DNA of 56,328 bases from a virus (Duplodnaviria; Caudoviricetes), in the IMG/VR virus record IMGVR_UViG_3300017963_000059, positions 1-56,328 of that record; one strand, given 5' to 3'. A model generated the notes under the pieces. That model saw only the letters and a list, made by a program, of their open reading frames with translations, had not been told where the DNA came from and made no database searches. The position numbers and the translations under genes were made by a program. Every line of letters starts with the position of its first letter. Within the stretch, counting starts at the first letter, position 1. Positions 14,230 through 45,622 of this stretch are shown piece after piece.

Positions 14230-14448
14230 ATGTCAGAATTTGATCCGGAAAAATGTACTATAGGAGCTAAATTAACACAAGCCTTTAAAGACCAGACCGG
14301 TACTCTGAAGATAATTAAGGATGGCGTTGAGAGACAGAATGGGAGAGTCAGAGCTATTGAAAAATGGATGTGGGCGTTAAGCGGAGCTATTGGAATATTG
14401 ACGATAAAAGGAATTTTTAACTTTGCAGTTGAGGTGTTAAGAAAATGA
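14230..14448 (+). CDS. Holin-like / XhlA-like membrane protein
   Basis: Coiled coil (RQNGRVRAIEKW) followed by one C-terminal TM helix. Confidence 0.55.
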   Translation: MSEFDPEKCTIGAKLTQAFKDQTGTLKIIKDGVERQNGRVRAIEKWMWALSGAIGILTIKGIFNFAVEVLRK

Positions 14449-16169
14449 AAAAGAATTATTTAATCATTTTAATCGCTGTGCTAATGATAGTATTGGCACT
14501 GGCGGGCAATTCGTTTGCCTGGAAGTATAACCATATCAGGACGTCGGCGCTTTGCTATTCTCTGACTGATGTGATCGGGGCTGACTTTGTGGGGCGACAT
14601 TATGACATCGCTATCAATCCGTCAGGAGCAAATTTTACGGCAGTGAAAGCCGCAGACCCGGAAACAAAATGTTTATTGTATATAACAATGTCTTCATTGA
14701 GGGGCGGCGACCATGATTTGATTCAACAGTTTTGTGATGAGAGGGGATACGATTCGGACAAGATGTATCTATGGGCGGAGAATGATGTCTGTGTGGCATC
14801 GATTGCTCCTGCCGGATCTCCATGTACTGGAGGTGCTACCTGCACTGATTCGGGAGAACGACTAAGCGTCTGCGGATGGAACTCATATCGAAATCAACCG
14901 GATTTTAGATACCAAGGAATGTGGGAATACTATTGGTATAAATATAAGATTAAAATGGGTAGTCAATACGATGGTGTTTATGAAGATGAATGTACGTTCT
15001 ACTATCATCCGATATGGGATTATTATTCTCCAATGATGTGCTATCCTATGAAGCCGGATAAATGGACACAAGGATCAGCAAGTGATATCAGGGGTTGGGA
15101 AGGTTATTCACATGATGCCATCCGTGATAGTCTACTTAATTTAAAACAAAATGAGTGGCTACCCTCACTAATGGACTCAATGAAGACTCATAACAAATTA
15201 CGTTTCACAAATCCCGCGGCCTATGGGATTTGTGGAAGCGATGTTATCGATGATGTTGTATTGACCGGAACCGGTGTTTCTCTTGGTGAGGGAATGCATC
15301 TAAGGCCGACAGCTACCGGATTTCATCAAGCCGCCTGGGATGTAATGGATTTTATAAATGGTTCAAGCGGATATGCAATAGTCTGGACTGAGATAATGAG
15401 TGCCGATTCGGTAGCTTTGGGCAGTTGGAATAGATGCTTAATGGAGCGGCTGGGCTGGTATTACATGAAAGGGAATGTAAATAACTTCTATTTCATGGTT
15501 ACCGGCAATGAGGTCTGGTTAAGACATAATGATTATCAGGCTAAGGATAGTACATATAAGTGGCTACCGGCGTTTGAATTTGATATAGGTCAACCTCTTG
15601 GAGATATGTATACCGCACAATCGGGGACAGACGGCGCGGGACAGTCTTATACTTTGAGAGCGCGTGATTTCAGTAATTCAATTGTCCTTTATCGCGGGGC
15701 AAACGGCAGTAACTATAGTGATCAGTCGGCTATCGTTTACGAGCTTGATGGTGATTACAGATTACTTCAATATGATGGAGCTCTGGGGGAGACAGTAACC
15801 TCGGCCTCAATTAGAAACTGCGAGACCGTGATATGCGTTCCGGACTCGACCATTCCCCAACAGTTTAATGTTGATATAGATATGCGGCCGATGCAACTCG
15901 GGGTCCTCTACGATGGATGGATTAAAAATCTTAATATTGATACAACCTCAGCTGATGTGACGGTCTATATCGATACACCGGATAGCACGTTTGTGATATT
16001 GAAAAAGACGGTAAAAGATATGGCTCCCGGGTTTGAAGGAATTAGCAGGCACTGGCGGTCCGTTAGTGTTGAATATGGGCAGCAATACAGATTCAGGGCA
16101 TATAGTTATGACGGGGGATTAGTTACAGATTCGACGGCATTCTCGATTGGAGTTGAAAAGGAATATTGA
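14445..16169 (+). CDS. Exported putative glycoside hydrolase (GHL15-like TIM barrel)
   Basis: Sec signal peptide (…ALAGNSFA); VKAADPETKCLLY, YDGVYEDE, DIGQPLG and RDFSNSIVLY motifs. Confidence 0.65.
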   Translation: MKKNYLIILIAVLMIVLALAGNSFAWKYNHIRTSALCYSLTDVIGADFVGRHYDIAINPSGANFTAVKAADPETKCLLYITMSSLRGGDHDLIQQFCDERGYDSDKMYLWAENDVCVASIAPAGSPCTGGATCTDSGERLSVCGWNSYRNQPDFRYQGMWEYYWYKYKIKMGSQYDGVYEDECTFYYHPIWDYYSPMMCYPMKPDKWTQGSASDIRGWEGYSHDAIRDSLLNLKQNEWLPSLMDSMKTHNKLRFTNPAAYGICGSDVIDDVVLTGTGVSLGEGMHLRPTATGFHQAAWDVMDFINGSSGYAIVWTEIMSADSVALGSWNRCLMERLGWYYMKGNVNNFYFMVTGNEVWLRHNDYQAKDSTYKWLPAFEFDIGQPLGDMYTAQSGTDGAGQSYTLRARDFSNSIVLYRGANGSNYSDQSAIVYELDGDYRLLQYDGALGETVTSASIRNCETVICVPDSTIPQQFNVDIDMRPMQLGVLYDGWIKNLNIDTTSADVTVYIDTPDSTFVILKKTVKDMAPGFEGISRHWRSVSVEYGQQYRFRAYSYDGGLVTDSTAFSIGVEKEY

Positions 16170-19349: not shown

Positions 19350-19548
19350 GAAAATCTGGCACAAGCTGATCAGCACCAGACTGATTTTCGGTCTGGTTAT
19401 CGTGATCCTGGCTTTCGTGGGATATATTCTTAAAAAGCCGGAATACCTGACTTTTGTTGGAGTATTGACCGGCGTTTACGGAACATATGTAATGGGCAAT
19501 ACACGCTCCAAGAATGTAGCTGCTCGAGAAGGAAGTGGTGAGCATTAA
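19342..19548 (+). CDS. Holin
   Basis: 68 aa, two TM helices, YVMGN motif, charged C-terminus. Confidence 0.7.
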   Translation: MDEKIWHKLISTRLIFGLVIVILAFVGYILKKPEYLTFVGVLTGVYGTYVMGNTRSKNVAAREGSGEH

Positions 19549-20107
19549 AGACGGACTTACAAAAGCCCTGATTGCTCTTGTAATTATCTTAGGGATAATT
19601 GCGTTCTATAAAAACGCCCAGCTCGAGAAGCGAGATATTAAAATTGCTGAATTAGAAAATGTAGCAACTGAGCTGAAGGGGAAAGCTGAAGCTCTTCCGG
19701 ATACGATTTATGGGGATACTATATATGTTACCCTGGAAGGGAAGCCAGTGCCGGTTAACAGTATCCCCGATTTTACATTTGAAATCAGGTCTCCGAAGGA
19801 TACGGTCAGTAGTTATGTTTCTTTCCGGGAGATCATTCTCAGGCCAATATTAAGTATCACCATCGATGAGGTCCTCGCCGGTAATTATAGAGTTCAGGGA
19901 GATCTGTTTGTCAATCGGTTTTCCGGAGACTATTCCGGAAAACTGAAGGGGATACCTCCTAAGTCTTCTCATAAACTCGAGTGGGGGGCTTTCGTAGGAT
20001 TAGCTTCAAAGCCGTTCGTTGGATTATATGGTCAATACAGGGGGCTTCTCATTGGTCCGACCTTCAGCGAGAAGAGAGTGGGGTTTCTCGTGGGATTTCG
20101 TCTATAG
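19535..20107 (+). CDS. Spanin-like lysis protein
   Basis: N-terminal TM helix, coiled coil, amphipathic C-terminal beta strands; last gene of the lysis cassette. Confidence 0.5.
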   Translation: MVSIKDGLTKALIALVIILGIIAFYKNAQLEKRDIKIAELENVATELKGKAEALPDTIYGDTIYVTLEGKPVPVNSIPDFTFEIRSPKDTVSSYVSFREIILRPILSITIDEVLAGNYRVQGDLFVNRFSGDYSGKLKGIPPKSSHKLEWGAFVGLASKPFVGLYGQYRGLLIGPTFSEKRVGFLVGFRL

Positions 20108-21411: not shown

Positions 21412-22512
21412 TTATTTTTTAGAGATGTCAATCTCTTTTGGTAAAAGGTTAAGATTCTCCATCACTGATCGCCGATGCCCAGGAGTCAGGTGAATGTATT
21501 TCATAGTTGTCTGAATGTCCGCATGACCAGCCAATTCTTTCACAGTAGTTATAGGTACTCCGGCCTGACAGAGCATACTTATATATGTATGGCGGAGCGT
21601 ATGAGCTCCAAATCCTTTTTTATATAATCCCGCTTTTTTTAAGACTTCATTTATTCTCTTGGTGTAATCACCGGGATCCTTATAGCGTTTACTTCCGCCG
21701 CCGTTGCAGAATATATATTTTCCATCCCGAGAGAGGTTATTAAAGAAATTCATACCTTCTTTACTTAAATCAATATAACGAACCTTGCGGGATTTAGGTG
21801 CGAAACCGTCTTTCGATTGTACGATAAGATGCCGGTTTTCCAGGTCAATATCGTCCCATTTCAGATTTGCCAGCTCCGATAGCCTGACGCCGGTTAATAA
21901 TATTAGTCTGATGTATTGTCCCGTATCATCATCAGCGGTCTCGAGGATTGTCTTAATCTCTTTTTTTGTAAAAGCTTTGCGGGAACGGACATTGGTTGTC
22001 TTTAGCATTTTAACCGCTTTAGCAGGATTCTTATTAATATAATCATAGTTGAAAGCTATATTCAATACCGTCTTCAATTGGATGATATAATCATTGGTGG
22101 TTTTAGGCGCCAATGATTGTCCAATTAGCCATGACTTCAGATCTTCTACTATTCTTAGAGTAATGTGCTGTAACTCTATACAGCCCTTCGATTCGAGATA
22201 ATCCTGAATCCTCTTGAGTCTAAAACGTTCCAGGCGACAATATTTCTCGGTCTTGCGCGGAGGTTTGCTGTGAGTATTAAGATATTCATTGAAAAACTCA
22301 TGGATGCGTATTGGCGTTTCTGGCGGTCCTTCGGCTTCGGTAGCCAATAAATGTTCGTAGCGGCGCTTGGCTTTGGCCAGATCGCGTGTCTTAAGCGATA
22401 CCCGGGCCGGTAATCCTTTTTTATATCTGGAGGGCAGCCAACCATAATATATGCCATTCTCGGAGCGCTTGAAAATGCCGTCGCGTTGGGAGTTGGGTTT
22501 GGGGGGGGACAT
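21412..22512 (-). CDS. int: Tyrosine integrase
   Basis: TGVRLSEL, K (PKSRK), HTLRH, LAGH and TTMKY catalytic motifs. Confidence 0.95.
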   Translation of the reverse strand: MSPPKPNSQRDGIFKRSENGIYYGWLPSRYKKGLPARVSLKTRDLAKAKRRYEHLLATEAEGPPETPIRIHEFFNEYLNTHSKPPRKTEKYCRLERFRLKRIQDYLESKGCIELQHITLRIVEDLKSWLIGQSLAPKTTNDYIIQLKTVLNIAFNYDYINKNPAKAVKMLKTTNVRSRKAFTKKEIKTILETADDDTGQYIRLILLTGVRLSELANLKWDDIDLENRHLIVQSKDGFAPKSRKVRYIDLSKEGMNFFNNLSRDGKYIFCNGGGSKRYKDPGDYTKRINEVLKKAGLYKKGFGAHTLRHTYISMLCQAGVPITTVKELAGHADIQTTMKYIHLTPGHRRSVMENLNLLPKEIDISKK

Positions 22513-27600: not shown

Positions 27601-28749
27601 ATGATAAAAATAGCGCATTTTGCAGATTTACATGCTTCCCAGAAAAACAAAGAGGAAGCGATAAAAGCCCTGAAATTCATACTCGAAACCTGTGAGGAAA
27701 GGGAGGTCGATGCGATAGTCAACGCCGGGGACACCTGGGACGGAGCTATTACATTGAATGACAGCGGTCCGTTCAACGAGATTATAGGGCTTATTGGGAA
27801 CACCGCGCCGGCGCCTATGTATATCATTCAGGGAACGCCCAGCCATGATATACCGGGCAGTATTAATATATTCAGGCGGTTAAGTCAGCCCCATCTTGGT
27901 GATACACATCGTACTCTGATCTTCCGGGAAGCTTACGGACCTATGAGGATGATTACCAAAAAGGGAGAGTTGGGAACAATTTCACTTCTTCCCGCACCGT
28001 CTAAATCGATACTGGCAAAAGGCCTTGAAGCGTCTCCGGATGAAATAAATGAACTTATACGCAGTAATCTCAGGGCAATTCTGGCTGATTTCGGAGCTAA
28101 GGTTTCTGTAGACGATAAACCACACATTCTGGTCGCTCATATCACCGTAACCGGATCAGAAACATCGACAGGTCAGACGATGTATGGTGGGGATATACAG
28201 GTATCGACAGCTGACCTAACCTTGGCAAACGCTGATTATATAGCCCTGGGACACATACATAAATCCCAGCAAGATTCATTTCCTGATCATATTAGCTATG
28301 CCGGATCTCCTTATCATCAGAATTTCGGGGAACTGGAGCCGAAGGGATTCAAGATAGTGACCTTCAATGATAGCGGTAAACTTCAAGAGATCGAATTCAT
28401 AGAAACCCCATCCAGACCGCGGCAGGTGATCGATGCTCATATTGTAGACGGAAAACTCGAATATTCTGAGGAACCGTGTAAAGGAGCAGATATCAAGGTC
28501 AGGATTCATGCGGAGGCGCATCAGTTCAATCCGGAAATGGAAAAGGATGCCCACACCTGGTGTGAAACGGGCAACAGTACCATCATCGAGAAAATCACTT
28601 CACCATTGATGAGGATCAGGGCTGCTAATCTAACGGAAGCTAAAACACTCCGGGATAAACTCACCGAATACGCTGAAGTCAAAGAAGCAGAGGTTACTGA
28701 TACTTCATTGGAAAAAGCGGACATATTGGAAGAGGAGGTGAGGGTATGA
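27601..28749 (+). CDS. sbcD: SbcD/Mre11 metallophosphoesterase nuclease
   Basis: ADLH, AGD, GTPSHD, AH, LGHIH and YAGS motifs. Confidence 0.92.
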   Translation: MIKIAHFADLHASQKNKEEAIKALKFILETCEEREVDAIVNAGDTWDGAITLNDSGPFNEIIGLIGNTAPAPMYIIQGTPSHDIPGSINIFRRLSQPHLGDTHRTLIFREAYGPMRMITKKGELGTISLLPAPSKSILAKGLEASPDEINELIRSNLRAILADFGAKVSVDDKPHILVAHITVTGSETSTGQTMYGGDIQVSTADLTLANADYIALGHIHKSQQDSFPDHISYAGSPYHQNFGELEPKGFKIVTFNDSGKLQEIEFIETPSRPRQVIDAHIVDGKLEYSEEPCKGADIKVRIHAEAHQFNPEMEKDAHTWCETGNSTIIEKITSPLMRIRAANLTEAKTLRDKLTEYAEVKEAEVTDTSLEKADILEEEVRV

Positions 28750-31010
28750 GACTGATCAGCGTGACAATCAGAGGCGCCATCGGTTTAACGCCTTATGGCG
28801 AGACTGTGGTTATTCCATTTGAGAGGTTTGATCCGGGTCCCATAGCTTTAGTAGGTCCGAACGGCGCCGGCAAGTCGACGATACTCGAGAACCTGCATCC
28901 CTGGCCGAGAATGGTTACCTACTCGGGGTCTCTCACAAATCATTTTTATTTGAAGGATTCATTGAGGGAGATCAGGTTTGAGTATTCCGGACACATATAT
29001 ACATCCCGGTTTCTGATTGACGGTGAAAAGAATAAGATTGAGACCTATCTCTACCGGGAAGACCAGCCCCTTAACGATGGTAAGACTCCCAGCTATAAAA
29101 AGCTTGTTGATGAATTGTTCGGAGATCCCGATTTATTCTTTAAATCGATATTCCTATCTCAGAACGGAGACCGGATATCTACCCTGAAAGCAGGGGAGAG
29201 CAAGAAATTCTTTGCCGGACTGATGGGACTTGACAGGTATCAGCTATGGTCGTCTGATGCGAAGGAGAGGGCGTCGCAGTTATCCGAGACCAGGGCGGAG
29301 TTAAGCGGCAAGATTCAGCAGCTTGAGGAAACTATTAAGAATAGTGAAGGAAGGCTTTCCGAGCGAGAAATAATTGAAAGGGAAATTAGGAGTATTCAGG
29401 AGATTATCCGGGGTTGGGAAGCCGGTTTATCGGCAGTTGATAAAGAGATTAATGAAACTCAGGTTCAGGCTGTCGAGCGGCAATCCATTATACGACAGAT
29501 CGATGAACTTAAAGAGGAGATATCCTTCTTAAATACAGAACATGACGATCTGGTGGAAACCCACAAGGCCAAGACTAAAGAAATCGAATCAAAGCTCCAG
29601 GAAAGCCAGCAGGGGATGGAGAAGCAACATCAATATCTGGAGCATGCTGATACTATCAGAAATAAGGCTAAACGATTTAAGGAGCTACAGCAGCAAGATT
29701 CCGAACTCTCTGAATTGAAGCAAAGGGTTTCAGAGCTTAATATTGAAAGAAAATCCCGAACCATCAAGATTGAAAATGAAATTAAAAGCAGGACAGATCG
29801 AATAAACCTCCTTGCTCAGCAGATTATTATTAACGAAAAGGCCGCCGGCCAGTTGGATGTTGTTCCCTGTAACGACAATGAAAATTATGTTAAGACATGT
29901 CCCCTCATTGAGAACGCGCGGAAGGGCAGGGATGAGGTTGCTCGACTTAAAAAGGAGTTGGCCGAACTTGAAGCCCATAAAGATGATCCGATCCCGGAGC
30001 AATCCCAATTGGATACCCTTGATGTGGAAATCAAAGCAATTCCGTATGATATATCCCGACATAATGAGATTAGAGATGAGCTCAAGAAACTACGGGAGAG
30101 GGACTGGACTAAACTAATAAGTGACTTAGATAAAGCCGAGACGACCATTGAGGGTCTCGAGGTGGGGATTGAAAAGCTCGAAGATCGTCTAACTGAAATC
30201 GCTATGGATTATGATTCCCGATCTAAGGTAATTACTACCAAACGAATAGAGAAGGAGAAGGATCTCGAGCAATTAAATAAATCTCTCTCTCAGATGCCGG
30301 AAGTAAACATCACGAAACTCCAGGACAAGAAATCCGATATTCAAAACGCTCTGTCATACAACCGTACCAAGTTCGGTGAAGTTCAGGGGCGGCTTAAAAT
30401 GCTCGATGAGCTTGCTGAAACCAATGAAAAGCAGAAAGAGGAATTAAAGCAGCTGAGTACTAATCAGGATATCCTTAACAGAGATATCTCTGACTGGAAG
30501 TTCCTGGAATTAGCCTGCGGTAAAAACGGCCTTCAGGCGTTAGAGCTTGATTCGGCCATTCCCCAGATATCAAATATAGCTACAGAGATTCTGCAGGAGT
30601 TCGGCAGGGAATGGTCTATCGCCATCAGTACAATCCGGGATTCGTCTGACGGCAAGAAGGAGATAGAGGATTTCCGGATAATGGTTTCGCGTCCGGGGGG
30701 AGTTGTGGAACTCGATAAGCTTTCCGGTGGCCAGAAGGTCTGGATTGAGGAGTCTCTCCGAAAAGCGGTCACTATCTATCTGATAAAACATTCCGGGAGG
30801 GACTACAGAACTATCCTGCAGGACGAAGCGGATGGTCCCCTTGATCCGGATAGAGCGGAAGCCTTCCTGAAAACGGCATTTAAGGCTCATGAATTAACCG
30901 GGGCATATCATACGATACTGATCACCCAGCGTCCGGAGATCTGGAATCAGGTTCCTCAGAGGATTCACCTGAATCCGGAAACTGGTAAGATTGAGATGGT
31001 GATGAACTGA
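28746..31010 (+). CDS. sbcC: SbcC/Rad50 SMC-family ATPase
   Basis: Walker A GPNGAGKS, long coiled coils, LSGGQ signature, Walker B LQDEADGPLD. Confidence 0.92.
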   Translation: MRLISVTIRGAIGLTPYGETVVIPFERFDPGPIALVGPNGAGKSTILENLHPWPRMVTYSGSLTNHFYLKDSLREIRFEYSGHIYTSRFLIDGEKNKIETYLYREDQPLNDGKTPSYKKLVDELFGDPDLFFKSIFLSQNGDRISTLKAGESKKFFAGLMGLDRYQLWSSDAKERASQLSETRAELSGKIQQLEETIKNSEGRLSEREIIEREIRSIQEIIRGWEAGLSAVDKEINETQVQAVERQSIIRQIDELKEEISFLNTEHDDLVETHKAKTKEIESKLQESQQGMEKQHQYLEHADTIRNKAKRFKELQQQDSELSELKQRVSELNIERKSRTIKIENEIKSRTDRINLLAQQIIINEKAAGQLDVVPCNDNENYVKTCPLIENARKGRDEVARLKKELAELEAHKDDPIPEQSQLDTLDVEIKAIPYDISRHNEIRDELKKLRERDWTKLISDLDKAETTIEGLEVGIEKLEDRLTEIAMDYDSRSKVITTKRIEKEKDLEQLNKSLSQMPEVNITKLQDKKSDIQNALSYNRTKFGEVQGRLKMLDELAETNEKQKEELKQLSTNQDILNRDISDWKFLELACGKNGLQALELDSAIPQISNIATEILQEFGREWSIAISTIRDSSDGKKEIEDFRIMVSRPGGVVELDKLSGGQKVWIEESLRKAVTIYLIKHSGRDYRTILQDEADGPLDPDRAEAFLKTAFKAHELTGAYHTILITQRPEIWNQVPQRIHLNPETGKIEMVMN

Positions 31011-40788: not shown

Positions 40789-41112
40789 TTGAAAGCCCTC
40801 AGCATTAAGCAGCCCTGGTCGTCGATGATCGCCAGCGGCGAGAAGACTATCGAGACCCGGACTTGGGGTACGAAATACAGGGGTGAGTTGTTGATCGTAT
40901 CTTCCAAGAAGCCAGCTATTCCCGGCCTGCCTTCCGGACAGGCAGTTGCCATAGCAGATTTAACGGACGTCCGGAGAATGACTAAAGAAGACGAGGCCGC
41001 GGCTTGTTGTGGAGTGTATCCCGGGGTCTTCGCCTGGGTGTTGGAGAATGTTCGGGAGATAGATCCCTTCCCGGTAAGAGGACAACAAGGATTATATGAA
41101 GTAGATATATAG
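40789..41112 (+). CDS. ASCH domain protein
   Basis: KALSIKQPW..MIASGEKTIETR.W.T.YRG and RGQQGL motifs. Confidence 0.9.
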   Translation: MKALSIKQPWSSMIASGEKTIETRTWGTKYRGELLIVSSKKPAIPGLPSGQAVAIADLTDVRRMTKEDEAAACCGVYPGVFAWVLENVREIDPFPVRGQQGLYEVDI

Positions 41113-41200
41113 CTAACGATTAAGGGTTTACGAAGACCCAATGAGGTAATGAGCGTATTGAATAACGAGAGATAAGAGTGATATTAAGTGATAAACATAG

Positions 41201-41228
41201 ACCATATTCGTGCAGTCACGAATATGGT
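41201..41228. repeat. 28-bp palindrome ACCATATTCGTG-CAGT-CACGAATATGGT
   Basis: Perfect 12-bp arms; 19/28 identical to 44400-44427. Confidence 0.85.
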
Positions 41229-41240
41229 AGGAGGTAACGA

Positions 41241-41819
41241 ATGCCGGCACCAGTTAAAACATTTTATTTCGATCTGGAGACTACAGGTCTTAATCCAGAG
41301 AAGCATGCCATAATTCAGCTTGCTCATATCATCGACATCGATGGCGAAATTGTCGAGGAGGGTGAATTTCTTATCAGACCGTACGAAAAAGACTTAATTG
41401 ATGATGAGGCGCTTAAGGTCAACAAGCGTACCCGGGAGGAGATTGCAGGATTCGAGGATCCGGATGTAGTCTTCTGGGAAATAGTTAATGATCTGCTCGA
41501 TAAGCATATCGACCGCTTCGATAAAACAGACAAGTTCTATCCAGCCGGTTATAATATTGAAAGCTTCGACATCCCCTTTATGAGAGAGTATTTCCGCAAG
41601 GCCGAGAATCCATATTATGGATCGTATTTCAACTATAAACCGATCGATCCGATGCGGATACTCTTCTGGCTGAATTGGATGGGTAAAATAAACCTTCCGA
41701 ACCTGAGACTTGAAACCGTTTGTAATTATTGTGGTATCAAAATAAATGCTCATGATGCGGTGTCGGATACCAGGGCGGCCAGGGAGTTGATACTCAGGAT
41801 GAGGAAGGTGTTGAAATGA
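41241..41819 (+). CDS. DEDDh 3'-5' exonuclease (DnaQ-like)
   Basis: DLETTG, GYNIESFD and AHDAVSD motifs. Confidence 0.9.
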   Translation: MPAPVKTFYFDLETTGLNPEKHAIIQLAHIIDIDGEIVEEGEFLIRPYEKDLIDDEALKVNKRTREEIAGFEDPDVVFWEIVNDLLDKHIDRFDKTDKFYPAGYNIESFDIPFMREYFRKAENPYYGSYFNYKPIDPMRILFWLNWMGKINLPNLRLETVCNYCGIKINAHDAVSDTRAARELILRMRKVLK

Positions 41820-43201: not shown

Positions 43202-43528
43202 ATGTATAAGTTATTAGTAATATTAGTGTTGGGGCTGTTGCTGATAGGATGTGCCGGCGAGCAATCTGCGGTAGTCAATCCGAGCGATAATCCGGATGTA
43301 TTTTTATCCTCCGGAAGCCCGGAATATTCTGGGCCATGCGAGGACGATGACAGCGTCATGCTGTATAAGGGGCAATATAGTTGGATGCGATCCGCCGAAG
43401 ATTCCACAAAATACCGGGTCAAGTATATCGACGCCGATTCGTATATCCTGCTGGTATCGGAATCCGGGGGAGAGGACATCATAATTAAATTAGATAATGT
43501 TTTACCGATAGCGGAACCATCGGAATAA
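43202..43528 (+). CDS. Lipoprotein
   Basis: Signal peptide with LLIG-C lipobox. Confidence 0.7.
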   Translation: MYKLLVILVLGLLLIGCAGEQSAVVNPSDNPDVFLSSGSPEYSGPCEDDDSVMLYKGQYSWMRSAEDSTKYRVKYIDADSYILLVSESGGEDIIIKLDNVLPIAEPSE

Positions 43529-43539
43529 GGGAGTAATCT

Positions 43540-44127
43540 ATGGCAGTTTTAACATGTGCCGTCAAGGGAGTTGTACCAGTAATCAACAAAGGCATTAACA
43601 ACGGAATTCGGATATCGCTGGCCTTCGTGGTCGATTATAAGGTGGAGATATTCAGGGACTTAATCCCTCCGGGAGTTTTTAAGATCATCGAGGACAACAA
43701 AGGACTGATACCGGGAGAATGTCATACGTTTAAGAATCAGCATATGCCACCTATACAGCTACTGTTGTATGAAGCGGAATCCTCTGGGGAACCGTTTTTC
43801 GATTATAAGATCAGGTTTATGGAAGACGCTTCTTTGAGTCTCGTGCAAGTGAATAAGGATTCTAAGCTTTTGAGATTGAATGTAAAGTTCGAAGAATTAC
43901 TTGAGAGGCTCGATAAAAAACTTCCCTTTACATTCTGCTGGCTGGCCGGCATGAATATCATCGGTACTATAATCAACATCGAGAAACTGCAGGGGACTAT
44001 CGAGGAGTCGGTTAAAAAGATGACCGACTGCGTTGATGGAGAGCATATTAAGTCAATGGAAATATCCCATGTTCAGGGTGGGAAGGTTCGGGATTCGGTT
44101 AAGATTACGAAGGACGGAGTAGTTTGA
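43540..44127 (+). CDS. Hypothetical protein
   Basis: 195-aa ORF with GGGAG RBS. Confidence 0.6.
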   Translation: MAVLTCAVKGVVPVINKGINNGIRISLAFVVDYKVEIFRDLIPPGVFKIIEDNKGLIPGECHTFKNQHMPPIQLLLYEAESSGEPFFDYKIRFMEDASLSLVQVNKDSKLLRLNVKFEELLERLDKKLPFTFCWLAGMNIIGTIINIEKLQGTIEESVKKMTDCVDGEHIKSMEISHVQGGKVRDSVKITKDGVV

Positions 44128-44312
44128 AGAGTTTGCGGAGGAGGCGCCAGATACCAATGAAGAGATATTTGATGCCAAGTATGATACTCTCGAGAATAGA
44201 TAATATCAACTTGAATGCTACCGGCATGTGGGGATCATGATAGAAGTCTTCGAACATGGAGTTAATAAGGTTGGCAAGGTTATGGAAGTCAATAGAAATA
44301 AGAAGCTTAACT

Positions 44313-44427
44313 TCAGTTGTCCGCTTTTCCCGGACAACCGAGATGTACGATAGTTTCGTACGACTGAAGTGTACGATTATATCGTACAGTTGAATTGCGA
44401 CCATTTTGCCGATGTCAGTAAAATGGT
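44313..44427. repeat. Tandem array of four palindromes of three types
   Basis: TCAGTTGTCCG-N7-CGGACAACCGA; GTACGA-N5-TCGTAC; TGTACGAT-N3-ATCGTACA; ACCATTTTGCCG-N4-CAGTAAAATGGT. Confidence 0.85.
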
Positions 44428-44459
44428 TTTGAAGGAATTGAGCGAGAAGGAAATCAAGG

Positions 44460-44621
44460 ATGAGATGTCCATATTGTAGCTCCGAAAAGACTTATGTGAG
44501 GCGGACTATTAAGCTGAAATCGAGCAATAAAATAATAAGAGAAAGACGATGCCGGGGCTGCAGGGGTATTTTCAAGACCGAAGAAAAAATATCGGAACCT
44601 GGAATAAAGTCTCGATATTAA
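44460..44621 (+). CDS. Zinc-ribbon protein (Ogr/Delta- or NrdR-N-like), possible late activator; not in the ORF track
   Basis: MRCPYCSSEKTYVRRT...IRERRCRGCRGIFKTEE, 53 aa. Confidence 0.7.
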   Translation: MRCPYCSSEKTYVRRTIKLKSSNKIIRERRCRGCRGIFKTEEKISEPGIKSRY

Positions 44622-44694
44622 ATATATGATATTTCTATAAGTTCATGAAAAAATAAGGATATGCCGATATAATAAGCGTAAGGTAAATATTTCC

Positions 44695-44724
44695 TTGACT
44701 TATTGTAAAAAGTACTTTTATTAT
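44695..44724 (+). promoter_or_regulatory. Putative promoter of the DUF5678-protease moron
   Basis: TTGACT, 18 bp spacer, TATTAT. Confidence 0.5.
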
Positions 44725-44745
44725 ATTATGGAACAGGAGCGGAAA

Positions 44746-44982
44746 ATGTTAGAAAAAGAATTTAAATATTATCGTGAGCACCAAAAAGAATTAGCCAAAG
44801 ACTATAATGAAAAATACATAGTAATTGTTGGTGAAGAGGTAATTGGCGTTTATGATTCTGAGATAGAAGCTTATAATAAAACAAAAGCAACACATGAGGT
44901 TGGCACATTTCTTATTCAATTCTGTTCAGCCGACCCCAATAACTATACTCAAACATTTCATTCCAGGGTGGGCTTTAGATAA
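44746..44982 (+). CDS. DUF5678-like small protein
   Basis: EFKYYREHQKELAKDYNEKYIVIVGEEVIGVYDSEIEA; ATG at 44746 after AGGAG. Confidence 0.75.
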   Translation: MLEKEFKYYREHQKELAKDYNEKYIVIVGEEVIGVYDSEIEAYNKTKATHEVGTFLIQFCSADPNNYTQTFHSRVGFR

Positions 44983-44997
44983 TTTGGTTAAGTAATA

Positions 44998-45549
44998 ATG
45001 CAGGGAAGTAGACCGAATATAAGGGCATTTACTTCAAGATATAAATATAGGATGAGAATCCTGGAAAATGAAGTTGAAATTGCCGAAGCTTTTGACCATA
45101 ACGATACATCAATTAAACCCAATTTAATTAAATATCAATGTATATGGGATACTGGGGCAACGGGTTCCGTTATTACAACAAAAGTAGTTAATAACCTTGG
45201 ATTACGACCAATAGGTAAGACGATTTGTCAGACCGTTGGTGGTCAAAAGGAGCAAAATGTATATCTTGTTGCAATCATGCTTCCTAATGGAGTTGGTTTT
45301 CCCAGCATTCCAGTTACCGAGGGAGAAATTGGAAATTATGATGTATTAATCGGCATGGATATTATAGGAGTAGGAGACTTTGCAGTTACCAATGAAGGCG
45401 GAAAAACTGTATTAAGCTATCAACTTCCTTCAACTGAGACAATCGATTTTGTAGAACAGCTTAAGAAATCATATCCACCACTACCCACCCCAGACGAGAA
45501 GCGTAAAGCAAGAAATAGGCGAAAAAGGGATAAACGTAAAAAGAAATAG
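44998..45549 (+). CDS. Retropepsin-like aspartic protease
   Basis: IWDTGAT catalytic motif and DVLIGMDII. Confidence 0.88.
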   Translation: MQGSRPNIRAFTSRYKYRMRILENEVEIAEAFDHNDTSIKPNLIKYQCIWDTGATGSVITTKVVNNLGLRPIGKTICQTVGGQKEQNVYLVAIMLPNGVGFPSIPVTEGEIGNYDVLIGMDIIGVGDFAVTNEGGKTVLSYQLPSTETIDFVEQLKKSYPPLPTPDEKRKARNRRKRDKRKKK

Positions 45550-45570
45550 ATATTAATAAGAAAAGTATAG

Positions 45571-45622
45571 AATAATGGTATATCTACCATTATTTTCATT
45601 TTAGGGTGGTATATCTACCATT
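45571..45622. promoter_or_regulatory. Duplicated palindrome TGGTATATCTACCATT upstream of a TTGACA
   Basis: Identical 16-mers at 45576 and 45607; the first extends to AATAATGGTA-TATC-TACCATTATT; TTGACA at 45638. Confidence 0.6.

Follow-up and report, generated by a model that had tools for sequence, protein, structure and literature searches.

Free-standing copies of gene-borne hairpin elements in a mixed-class array of a phage genome

Four free-standing copies of a hairpin element that otherwise lies within the codons of Bro-N-fold genes are found at the end of the DNA-metabolism block of a phage genome, where they are non-coding and lineage-specific. The phage is represented by IMG/VR virus record IMGVR_UViG_3300017963_000059 (Duplodnaviria; Caudoviricetes), a complete record of 56,328 bp with direct terminal repeats at its ends, referred to here as the window. 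A sequence-only reading of the window had described the four copies as butt-joined palindromes, P1 to P4, likened the peptides they encode to segments of RhuM, Bro-N and DinD proteins, and proposed that they form either a decoy or a set of cassettes. All four dyads were located at the positions it gave (Table 1), and their peptides, carried by the open reading frames (ORFs) 44256-44393 and 44369-44479, had been read correctly. The overall interpretation is partly supported by the analyses presented below.

The units belong to two classes. Since the difference between the arms of P1 and those of P2/P3 is compensatory (C:G to A:T), P1, P2 and P3 are considered as one class and P4 as a second. 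P2 and P3 had been described as diverged 26-bp tandem copies, which is confirmed by the spacing of their cores: that of P3 sits 26 nt past that of P2 (GTACGA-TAGTT-TCGTAC at 44345-44361), and the two units are ~70% identical over 30 nt by an eye count. P1 reads SVVRFSRTT on the plus strand and RLSGKSGQLKL in the Bro-N frame of the minus strand; an identical 27-nt copy of it is present in metagenome loci L401 and L406. The 13-nt arms of P4 contain two non-Watson-Crick positions. The 161-nt stretch folds considerably better than its shuffled versions on both strands (z of -6.2 and -7.8, with 0 of 200 shuffles equal on each), and in the plus-strand fold an outer helix joins the flanks and encloses the whole array. 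The number of hairpins in the window, 55 versus 30-57 in 20 Markov simulations, is not decisive. The array is nevertheless the densest hairpin cluster in the window (3 in 130 bp), a density equalled in one of the 20 simulations. Judged from sequence, the decisive evidence against a chance origin is that each unit matches widespread elements elsewhere.

Patterns for the classes were scanned over the genome collection and returned at least 120 loci each, versus roughly 0.3 (DinD class), 70 (P1 class) and 17 (P2/P3 class) matches expected by chance in the whole collection. The Bro-N/RhuM class, which is fitted by P1, P2 and P3, has arms (A)GTTGT[C/A]CG ... CG[G/T]ACAAC(T), a 5-7-nt loop and a CTGAA flank, and is readable as ExxxxxxQLK or SVVRxxRTT. 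The DinD class has arms ACCATTTTG ... CAAAATGGT around a 4-nt centre and reads DHFxDVxKMV; P4 fits it exactly (44400-44427). The DinD-class pattern has 21 fixed bases, and its loci come from many bacterial phyla and a methanogen. Among the matches listed, 77 of 110 DinD-class sites lie in ORFs of at least 150 aa in the DHF..KMV frame, 86 of 122 P1-class sites lie in ORFs of that size, and 82 of 127 P2/P3-class sites do so in the E[LV]YDKIVQLK frame, the predominant reading of this class, found in proteins of ~280-300 aa. Two families read the P1-class arms, each in its own frame: as [EQ]LSEKIGQLK in proteins of ~280 aa and as [SA]VVR[KN]FRTTA in proteins of ~340 aa. In Pfam, carriers of the SVVR form are RhuM proteins (8 of 8) and carriers of the other forms Bro-N proteins (14 of 14), and both DinD carriers searched were recognised by NCBIfam (2 of 2).

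Class scans and carrier families therefore agree on P4 as the palindrome of the DinD family (DHFADVSKMV) and on P2 and P3 as that of the Bro-N family (E[LV]YDKIVQLK), as the sequence-only reading had it, and all units match the families that it named. Its assignment of P1 to RhuM holds for the arms (SVVR[KN]FRTT); the loop and flank are nearer to the Bro-N form (ELSEKIGQLK), and P1 is inverted relative to P2 and P3. In blastn of the array against GenBank phages, 12 matches were obtained at E up to 10, nine of them on P4. P4 matches inside the DinD genes of two unverified phage records (NCBIfam NF008573, E ~1e-105; Pfam Bro-N), in which KDHFADVSKMV is encoded by a perfect 28-bp palindrome; compared by eye with a DinD gene, P4 is identical at 27 of 30 nt and in its peptide. 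Across the DinD class, paired codons change together: GCT/AGC, GTT/AAC, GCC/GGC, GTC/GAC, GCG/CGC and GAT/ATC. The palindromes are found across bacterial phyla, in archaea and in viruses.

Each unit of the phage corresponds to just the ~10-codon segment, without adjoining gene sequence. The window had been said to lack the carrier genes, and neither a Bro-N nor a RhuM gene was found in it at E up to 1; DinD is covered by the Bro-N search, as DinD matched Bro-N in Pfam. ORF 44256-44393, for which protein-coding selection had been named as a possibility, has neither family nor tblastn support. The gene-borne element occupies residues ~65-75 of a DinD (NF008573) gene, which is not where P4 lies. 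Because the phage has no Bro-N-fold gene, and P4 is non-coding and missing from the closest relative found, P4 is a free-standing copy.

The relative in question, G304 (the contig of locus L002), is a complete 66,374-bp virus record whose methyltransferase is 91% identical to that of the phage. Relatives were sought via neighbouring proteins; G304 came from the methyltransferase only, and three other neighbours gave none. A 20-mer taken from the conserved block to the left of the array had its exact match in the G304 contig only, and blastn of the 2-kb region against GenBank phages gave no match. Window positions 44170-44304 correspond to L002 1628-1762 (82%) and positions 44446-44554 to L002 1764-1872 (72%), so that in G304 the left conserved block is joined straight to the zinc-ribbon gene that follows the array. 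Since AGAAG is present at both junctions (44301-44305 and 44445-49), the borders of the missing segment can be placed only to within a few bases. The locus varies, as the array is an indel relative to G304. The only other unit in the phage, at 41201 and thus 3 kb upstream, terminates a second segment that G304 lacks. Between the end of this fifth unit and the ATG of an exonuclease gene at 41241 there are 12 nt; the unit differs from the DinD class by a compensatory T:A to A:T change, and is comparable to a gene-borne variant reading HFREVTKMV in L393. The two inserted segments have nothing in common except a DinD-class unit. Neither class of unit is represented in G304, which also lacks a Bro-N gene. 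In the phage, the copies are without a carrier gene and appear recent. An origin of the array as a recent copy from one of the species-representative genomes was considered and rejected, as the exact P1 and P3 variants are absent there (0 and 0).

Inside Bro-N-fold genes, the pairing itself is under selection. We sampled dinD genes by protein profile and not by palindrome: the gene was above the cut-off in 42 of 301 Bacteroidota genomes, and 30 loci were analysed. In all 30 genes, at least 10 of the 14 pairs in the segment that aligns with DHF..KMV are complementary (at least 12 in 25 of the genes), versus a gene-wide mean of ~3.5, and in 29 of the 30 this segment is the best 28-nt window. In the alignment of the segment 93.1% of cells are paired, with two-sided changes at 7 of 13 pairs and a covariation score of 0.384, compared with 0.143 in shuffles (none of 500 reaches 0.384); in slid controls at most 56.5% of cells are paired and the score is at most 0.149. 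Loop positions are free to vary while the stems covary, and the stem is kept at the expense of amino acids, as in HFVEMHEMV, HFEDILEMV and HFSQVGKMV. blastn of a Bacteroidota dinD palindrome segment against E. coli genomes gave no match, and for this reason we make no claim on E. coli dinD.

The DinD-class palindrome is distributed differently in viruses and cells. A scan of viral sequences with the same pattern returned at least 109 loci; the following counts refer to sites away from locus ends, among the matches listed. The palindrome lies in a DinD-frame ORF of at least 150 aa at 13 of 84 sites in viral contigs versus 73 of 97 in cellular genomes, and no ORF of at least 100 aa covers the site at 36 of 84 versus 14 of 97. 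It is butt-joined (gap of at most 20 nt) to a different hairpin at 22 of 98 viral sites, as opposed to 2 of 111 cellular ones. In viruses the palindrome is thus mostly free-standing (71 of 84 sites not in-gene). By ORF calls, 42 of the 80 viral sites among the matches listed are intergenic, many within 30 nt of the end or start of an ORF. Their neighbours are mixed, including helicases, replication initiators, a DNA-repair family, integrases, regulators, HNH endonucleases and tail fibres; one copy adjoins the same exonuclease family as that at 41241. In the three genome scans, 40 of the 373 sites among the matches listed are free-standing, with mostly housekeeping genes beside them, and their 115 neighbour proteins include one tyrosine integrase, one DDE transposase and one serine recombinase. 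Neither a recurrent recombinase nor a single recurring neighbour gene was found beside free copies in the genome and viral scans.

Other mixed-class arrays are present in L153 (three non-coding variants of the Bro-N class), L116, L407 and the Fusobacterium phage phiFN37. The P1...P4 composite pattern matched eight metagenome loci and one viral locus, none of which holds the same array, and a repeated composite element was rejected on this ground. The palindromes butt-joined to the DinD-class unit recur across viral contigs. In unrelated contigs, partners such as GTTCCCGAAAC...GTTTCGGGAAC and AATACCGCC...GGCGGTATT are found (loci L419, L447, L449, L490 and L518; L477, L487, L495 and L509; L424, L430 and L453), and such recurrent partners may represent further classes of the same phenomenon.

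Several of the retrieved loci combine free copies with a carrier gene. In L116 (1696-1823 and 814-1674) three palindromes stand upstream of a dinD-like gene; two symmetric palindromes there have the half-sites ACGTTTTGC and CCATTTTGC, and the internal palindrome of the gene itself is a hybrid of ACGTTTTGC and CCATTTTGC, which looks like an exchange between copies. In L023 (656-5843) and L051 (1490-2674), a Bro-N/DinD-type gene has free copies of its own palindrome on both sides and adjoins a repressor-like gene with HTH_3 and Peptidase_S24 domains; in L051 an ImpB/UmuC-type polymerase gene is adjacent as well, and the arrangement is SOS-like. The copies beside the HTH-S24 gene were compared with the Bacteroidetes LexA-like motifs GGA-N5-TCC and CTAA-N5-TTAG given in PMC8565304 and rejected as LexA-like boxes, the motifs being other sequences. 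In L403, several tandem repeats of the half-site CGGACAAC, ~11-12 nt apart, stand beside a full palindrome in an iteron-like manner (positions ~6-86, on the minus strand of this locus).

For one Bro-N-type carrier protein an AlphaFold model was built from a 13-sequence alignment (mean pLDDT 84.6). In this model ELSEKIGQLK (residues 60-69) falls on a short helix at 61-64 and on the strand at 66-71 that opens a β-hairpin, so that the position just before the wing, given in the sequence-only reading, is about right for this protein. The best matches among solved folds are chains of Deinococcus DdrC (best E 1.4e-6, TM 0.39-0.49); a sequence search of a DinD protein against the PDB returned no match. 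DdrC is described in PMC11347143 as a homodimer that senses and binds pairs of DNA breaks. The carrier proteins match the PADLOC candidate defence family PDC-S13 (E ~1e-119), and RhuM and dinD are listed as neighbours in Type I restriction-modification loci (PMC9881135). A protein encoded in L235 (4976-5995) joins the N-terminal part of RhuM, palindrome segment included, to a Fic/DOC domain (Pfam E 7.7e-23 and 5.6e-10).

Our favoured reading, tentative as it is, takes the units as mimics of recognition sites for DdrC-like Bro-N, DinD and RhuM proteins, which would make the array a decoy or a sensor. The units would act as stem-loops, either extruded from duplex DNA, formed in single-stranded DNA or present in a leader RNA, and would be recognised by the Bro-N, DinD and RhuM proteins that bear the same element in their own genes. 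Because sequence as well as structure is kept across phyla and only the carrier proteins travel with the element, they would be the simplest specific partner, acting on it in a folded state, as hairpin or cruciform. By holding several classes without the genes, the phage would offer mimic sites. As a decoy, these could soak up candidate defence proteins of the PDC-S13 type; as a sensor, they could make expression of both neighbouring genes dependent on such proteins being present. Hints of site-like use come from the copies upstream of dinD in L116, those flanking the Bro-N/DinD-type gene in L023 and L051, and the tandem half-site of L403.

Several points weigh against this proposal. We keep our confidence low, and most dinD genes have no extra copies adjoining them. 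In the profile-chosen sample, none of the 30 loci has a second DinD-class palindrome beside dinD, and some other palindrome is near the gene in only a few. G304 manages without any unit, species-representative genomes lack the exact P1 and P3 variants, and the neighbours of free copies are heterogeneous in cells and viruses alike. The match to DdrC is modest and concerns one Bro-N-type protein only. The two-sided covariation at inner arm positions favours intrastrand pairing over duplex recognition by a dimer, and gene-borne copies show a weak G.U versus A.C asymmetry (14 versus 6 among 1368 pair cells), a measure that could have separated selection on RNA from selection on DNA.

Second in standing, though doubtful, is that the units are selfish or passively spread palindromes, comparable to repetitive extragenic palindromes (REP) and bacterial interspersed mosaic elements (BIME), palindrome-associated transposable elements (PATE) or miniature inverted-repeat transposable elements (MITE), which would move by transposition, template switching or illegitimate recombination and stay in intergenic phage DNA with no particular function, with the gene copies as domesticated insertions. 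REP and BIME of enterobacteria and pseudomonads form lineage-specific families with hundreds of copies per genome and rely on RAYT transposases. The array shares with them short imperfect palindromes placed head to tail in mixed orientation, a location in extragenic, probably transcribed DNA and a copy number that varies between relatives. Both unit-bearing segments are indels flanked by direct repeats of 4-5 bp, the mosaic in both orientations resembles BIME architecture, and the frequent intergenic position of viral copies close to ORF ends and the heterogeneous neighbours of free copies are also as expected of such elements. However, the phage has five units in 56 kb, their arms are common to phyla, archaea and viruses whereas REP-type families are lineage-specific, and the sequences double as codons in three gene families. 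The two insertions share only the DinD-class unit, the composite recurs nowhere, and free copies have no recurrent transposase or recombinase beside them; no RAYT-like gene was seen in the phage, for which no RAYT profile search was made. MITE and PATE have terminal inverted repeats, a target-site duplication and additional whole copies; the array has a closing inverted repeat and the AGAAG direct repeats, its composite was not found again in metagenome and viral contigs, and the second indel is unrelated except for its unit. The short direct repeats fit equally well with palindrome-stimulated deletion in the relative.

It is rather unlikely that the units act simply as RNA hairpins, with the array as a folded 5' leader or intercistronic structure through which the zinc-ribbon mRNA would be stabilised, processed or controlled in its translation, and the fifth unit doing the same for the exonuclease mRNA. 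Such roles are known for REP stabilisers and RNase III sites of phages. The strong fold and closing helix, the freely varying loops with covarying stems, and the distance to the downstream start codon (32 nt from the end of P4, 12 nt from that of the fifth unit) are consistent with this explanation, as are the many viral copies at distances of a few nt up to tens of nt from the edge of an ORF. Yet generic RNA hairpins need no sequence identity with elements in other phyla, the minus strand folds equally well, the G.U versus A.C asymmetry is weak, and G304 has the same genes without the hairpins. In the window there is no match to an Rfam family at the gathering score, and no terminator-like site (G+C-rich stem followed by a T run) was found in 43400-45200.

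We regard as improbable that the palindromes are recombination scars, left behind where Bro-N, DinD or RhuM-type genes were repeatedly gained and lost with breakpoints at the palindromes. The slot is variable, the flanks of the window and L002 differing on both sides of the conserved block, and truncated gene pieces with palindromes do exist, such as the RhuM-like fragment seen by eye beside a solitary unit in L401. However, the units are exactly the ~10-codon segment without flanking gene sequence, four units of two classes with one inverted would require several precise events, and the carrier gene is in neither phage. Ordinary operators of a phage regulator, for instance the zinc-ribbon protein, or a short coding ORF (44256-44393 or 44369-44479) are very improbable: the site is flanked by divergent genes, part of P4 falls within a promoter-like match and the ORFs are open, but zinc-ribbon homologues at four other viral loci have no array upstream (0 of 4), the only other unit in the phage is at 41201, and the ORFs have no family support, tblastn matches to phages only at E of at least 3, and are deleted in the relative. 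The suggestion in the sequence-only reading that the units are micro-cassettes diversifying the carrier genes fits poorly, as the phage contains no target for them and free variation would be expected, whereas the palindromes are kept by compensatory change.

Comparison with other known systems bears on the mimic-site proposal as well. Rickettsia palindromic elements (RPE) are likewise palindromic DNA that is translated within coding sequence, but they are 100-150 bp long and occur in many unrelated genes of one genus, whereas the present units measure ~28 bp, sit at a constant place within a single protein fold, retain their pairing through compensatory changes and are also free-standing. Phage mimics of host defence RNA repeats, such as the pseudo-ToxI of phage phiTE and the RNA anti-CRISPRs derived from solitary repeat units, are also short gene-free copies of a repeat unit from a defence locus, several of them arrayed, and can act as decoys. 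They copy a known RNA partner of a known protein, whereas here the unit is part of a coding sequence, the classes are mixed, and the likeness consists of sequence mimicry and candidate-defence status. Intragenic and auxiliary operators such as lac O2 and gal OI are dyad-symmetric sites inside or beside the related gene, but lack two-sided covariation at inner arm positions; this analogy is weakened because no second DinD-class copy adjoins dinD in the profile-chosen sample. Several baculovirus genome papers reportedly mention homologous-region (hr) palindromes together with bro genes, a likeness in palindrome arrays and BRO-family context. Integron attC sites and gene-free attC clusters are likewise heterologous imperfect palindromes, which are recognised in folded single-stranded form and stand in arrays within defence-rich DNA. 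In contrast to them, the units lie inside codons and have stems of 10-13 bp and not long bulged bottom-strand folds, and no R''/R' core motifs were seen, these attC features being judged by eye only; no integron integrase was seen, the integrase of the phage belonging to phrog_1.

The remainder of the window provides the setting of the array. PHROG matches identify a temperate myovirus, with genes for a major head protein, tail sheath, tape measure, baseplate hub, integrase, SbcD/SbcC-like nuclease, replication initiator, DnaB-like helicase, terminase and portal; no tRNA or tmRNA gene was found in the whole window. The array occupies a 332-bp gap between ORF 43540-44127, which matches no family, and the zinc-ribbon gene, which is kept in L002 (54% identity). 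To judge by the four other viral loci, the zinc-ribbon gene is not regularly accompanied by the array. Compared with L002, the 29 core codons from the Met (44257) of the small gene on the left show seven synonymous and three non-synonymous changes, and the 15 codons upstream of this Met none and 11, respectively. Since by this pattern the left conserved block is a minus-strand gene, the array lies between two divergent small genes, with a spacer of ~202 bp versus ~62 bp in the relative. The left gene is under purifying selection and may encode a small membrane peptide; its long ORF form, which was the one searched, matches no family. The promoter-like match overlapping P4 amounts to agreement with a consensus (9 of 12), from which no function follows.

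Table 1. Coordinates of the array, its units and neighbouring features in the window
Feature	Position	Strand	Description
P1, Bro-N/RhuM-class	44313..44341	-	arms GTTGTCCG / CGGACAAC at 44313-44323 / 44331-44341; 11 nt, 91% complementary, 7-nt loop
P2, Bro-N-class	44340..44368	+	GTACGA-N5-TCGTAC then CTGAAG; reads EMYDSFVRLK
P3, Bro-N-class	44366..44394	+	arms 44367-44377 / 44381-44391; 11 nt, 91%, 3-nt loop; reads EVYDYIVQLN
P4, DinD-class	44399..44428		ACCATTTTG...AAAATGGT; arms 44400-44412 / 44415-44427; 13 nt, 85%, 2-nt gap; reads DHFADVSKMV
Fifth unit, DinD-class variant	41201..41228		perfect 12-bp stem ACCATATTCGTG / CACGAATATGGT; fits relaxed pattern
Non-coding segment holding the array, ~141 nt	44305..44445		missing from G304/L002 (blastn, MAFFT)
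Second indel, ~124 nt	41106..41229		missing from G304; terminates in fifth unit; GTAG at 41101-04 and 41227-30
Promoter-like match	44395..44424	+	TTGCGA, 18 nt, TAAAAT; overlaps P4; 36 nt upstream of zinc-ribbon start codon
NrdR-like zinc-ribbon gene, 53 aa	44460..44621	+	Pfam PF22811, E 3.5e-7; phrog_10675; directly 3' of array
Small hydrophobic-protein gene, ~50 aa	44105..44257	-	starts MFEDFY... (LGI core); divergent from zinc-ribbon gene
Integrase gene	21412-22512	-	phrog_1 match (general phage tyrosine integrase family)

Downstream of the zinc-ribbon gene, three ORFs of L002 (192, 75 and 584 aa; L002 2068-4621) replace the DUF5678-like and aspartyl-protease-like genes of the window, so that this slot, compared between the two sequences, appears to be a variable accessory slot. 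The window also contains other palindromes. A 13-bp stem with TTCCGGA-type arms, one mismatch and a 6-nt loop (19915-19946) lies inside ORF 19535-20107 (190 aa, no PHROG match) and may be another codon-embedded palindrome. Long hairpins are present at 15203-15237 (13-bp stem, inside ORF 14445-16169) and at 45569-45596 (12-bp stem, directly after the aspartyl-protease-like gene 44998-45549). The same genome that carries these long palindromes encodes, at 27601-31010, SbcD-like and SbcC-like subunits of a nuclease that cleaves palindromes and hairpins (phrog_100 and phrog_77).

A literature search, with supplements and subscription journals outside it, found no description or published name of the intragenic palindromes, nor of such arrays. 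What is new is the occurrence of a gene-free array of mixed classes in a complete phage, its presence as an indel when a close relative is compared, a fifth unit, and the different distribution in viruses and cells. As a broader and more speculative proposal, to which we give little weight, Bro-N-fold proteins (DinD, RhuM and those of the PDC-S13 type) would recognise a hairpin or cruciform in their own coding sequence, a self-contained site for control or sensing that moves with the gene by horizontal transfer, and phages would answer with gene-free mixed-class arrays as decoys or sensors, a new class of anti-defence elements made from stretches of the codons of defence genes. If so, DinD, RhuM and the Bro-N-type PDC-S13 proteins, which are common but functionally obscure, would gain a testable handle: a hairpin of ~28 bp, found from bacteria to archaea and overriding amino-acid choice, of which phages carry gene-free collections. 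The contrast between viruses and cells gives this a direction, the hairpins being mostly in genes in cells and mostly free in viruses. Even if the units are selfish, palindromes that occur as codons as well as in intergenic mosaics, and do so across domains, would constitute a new kind of repeat.

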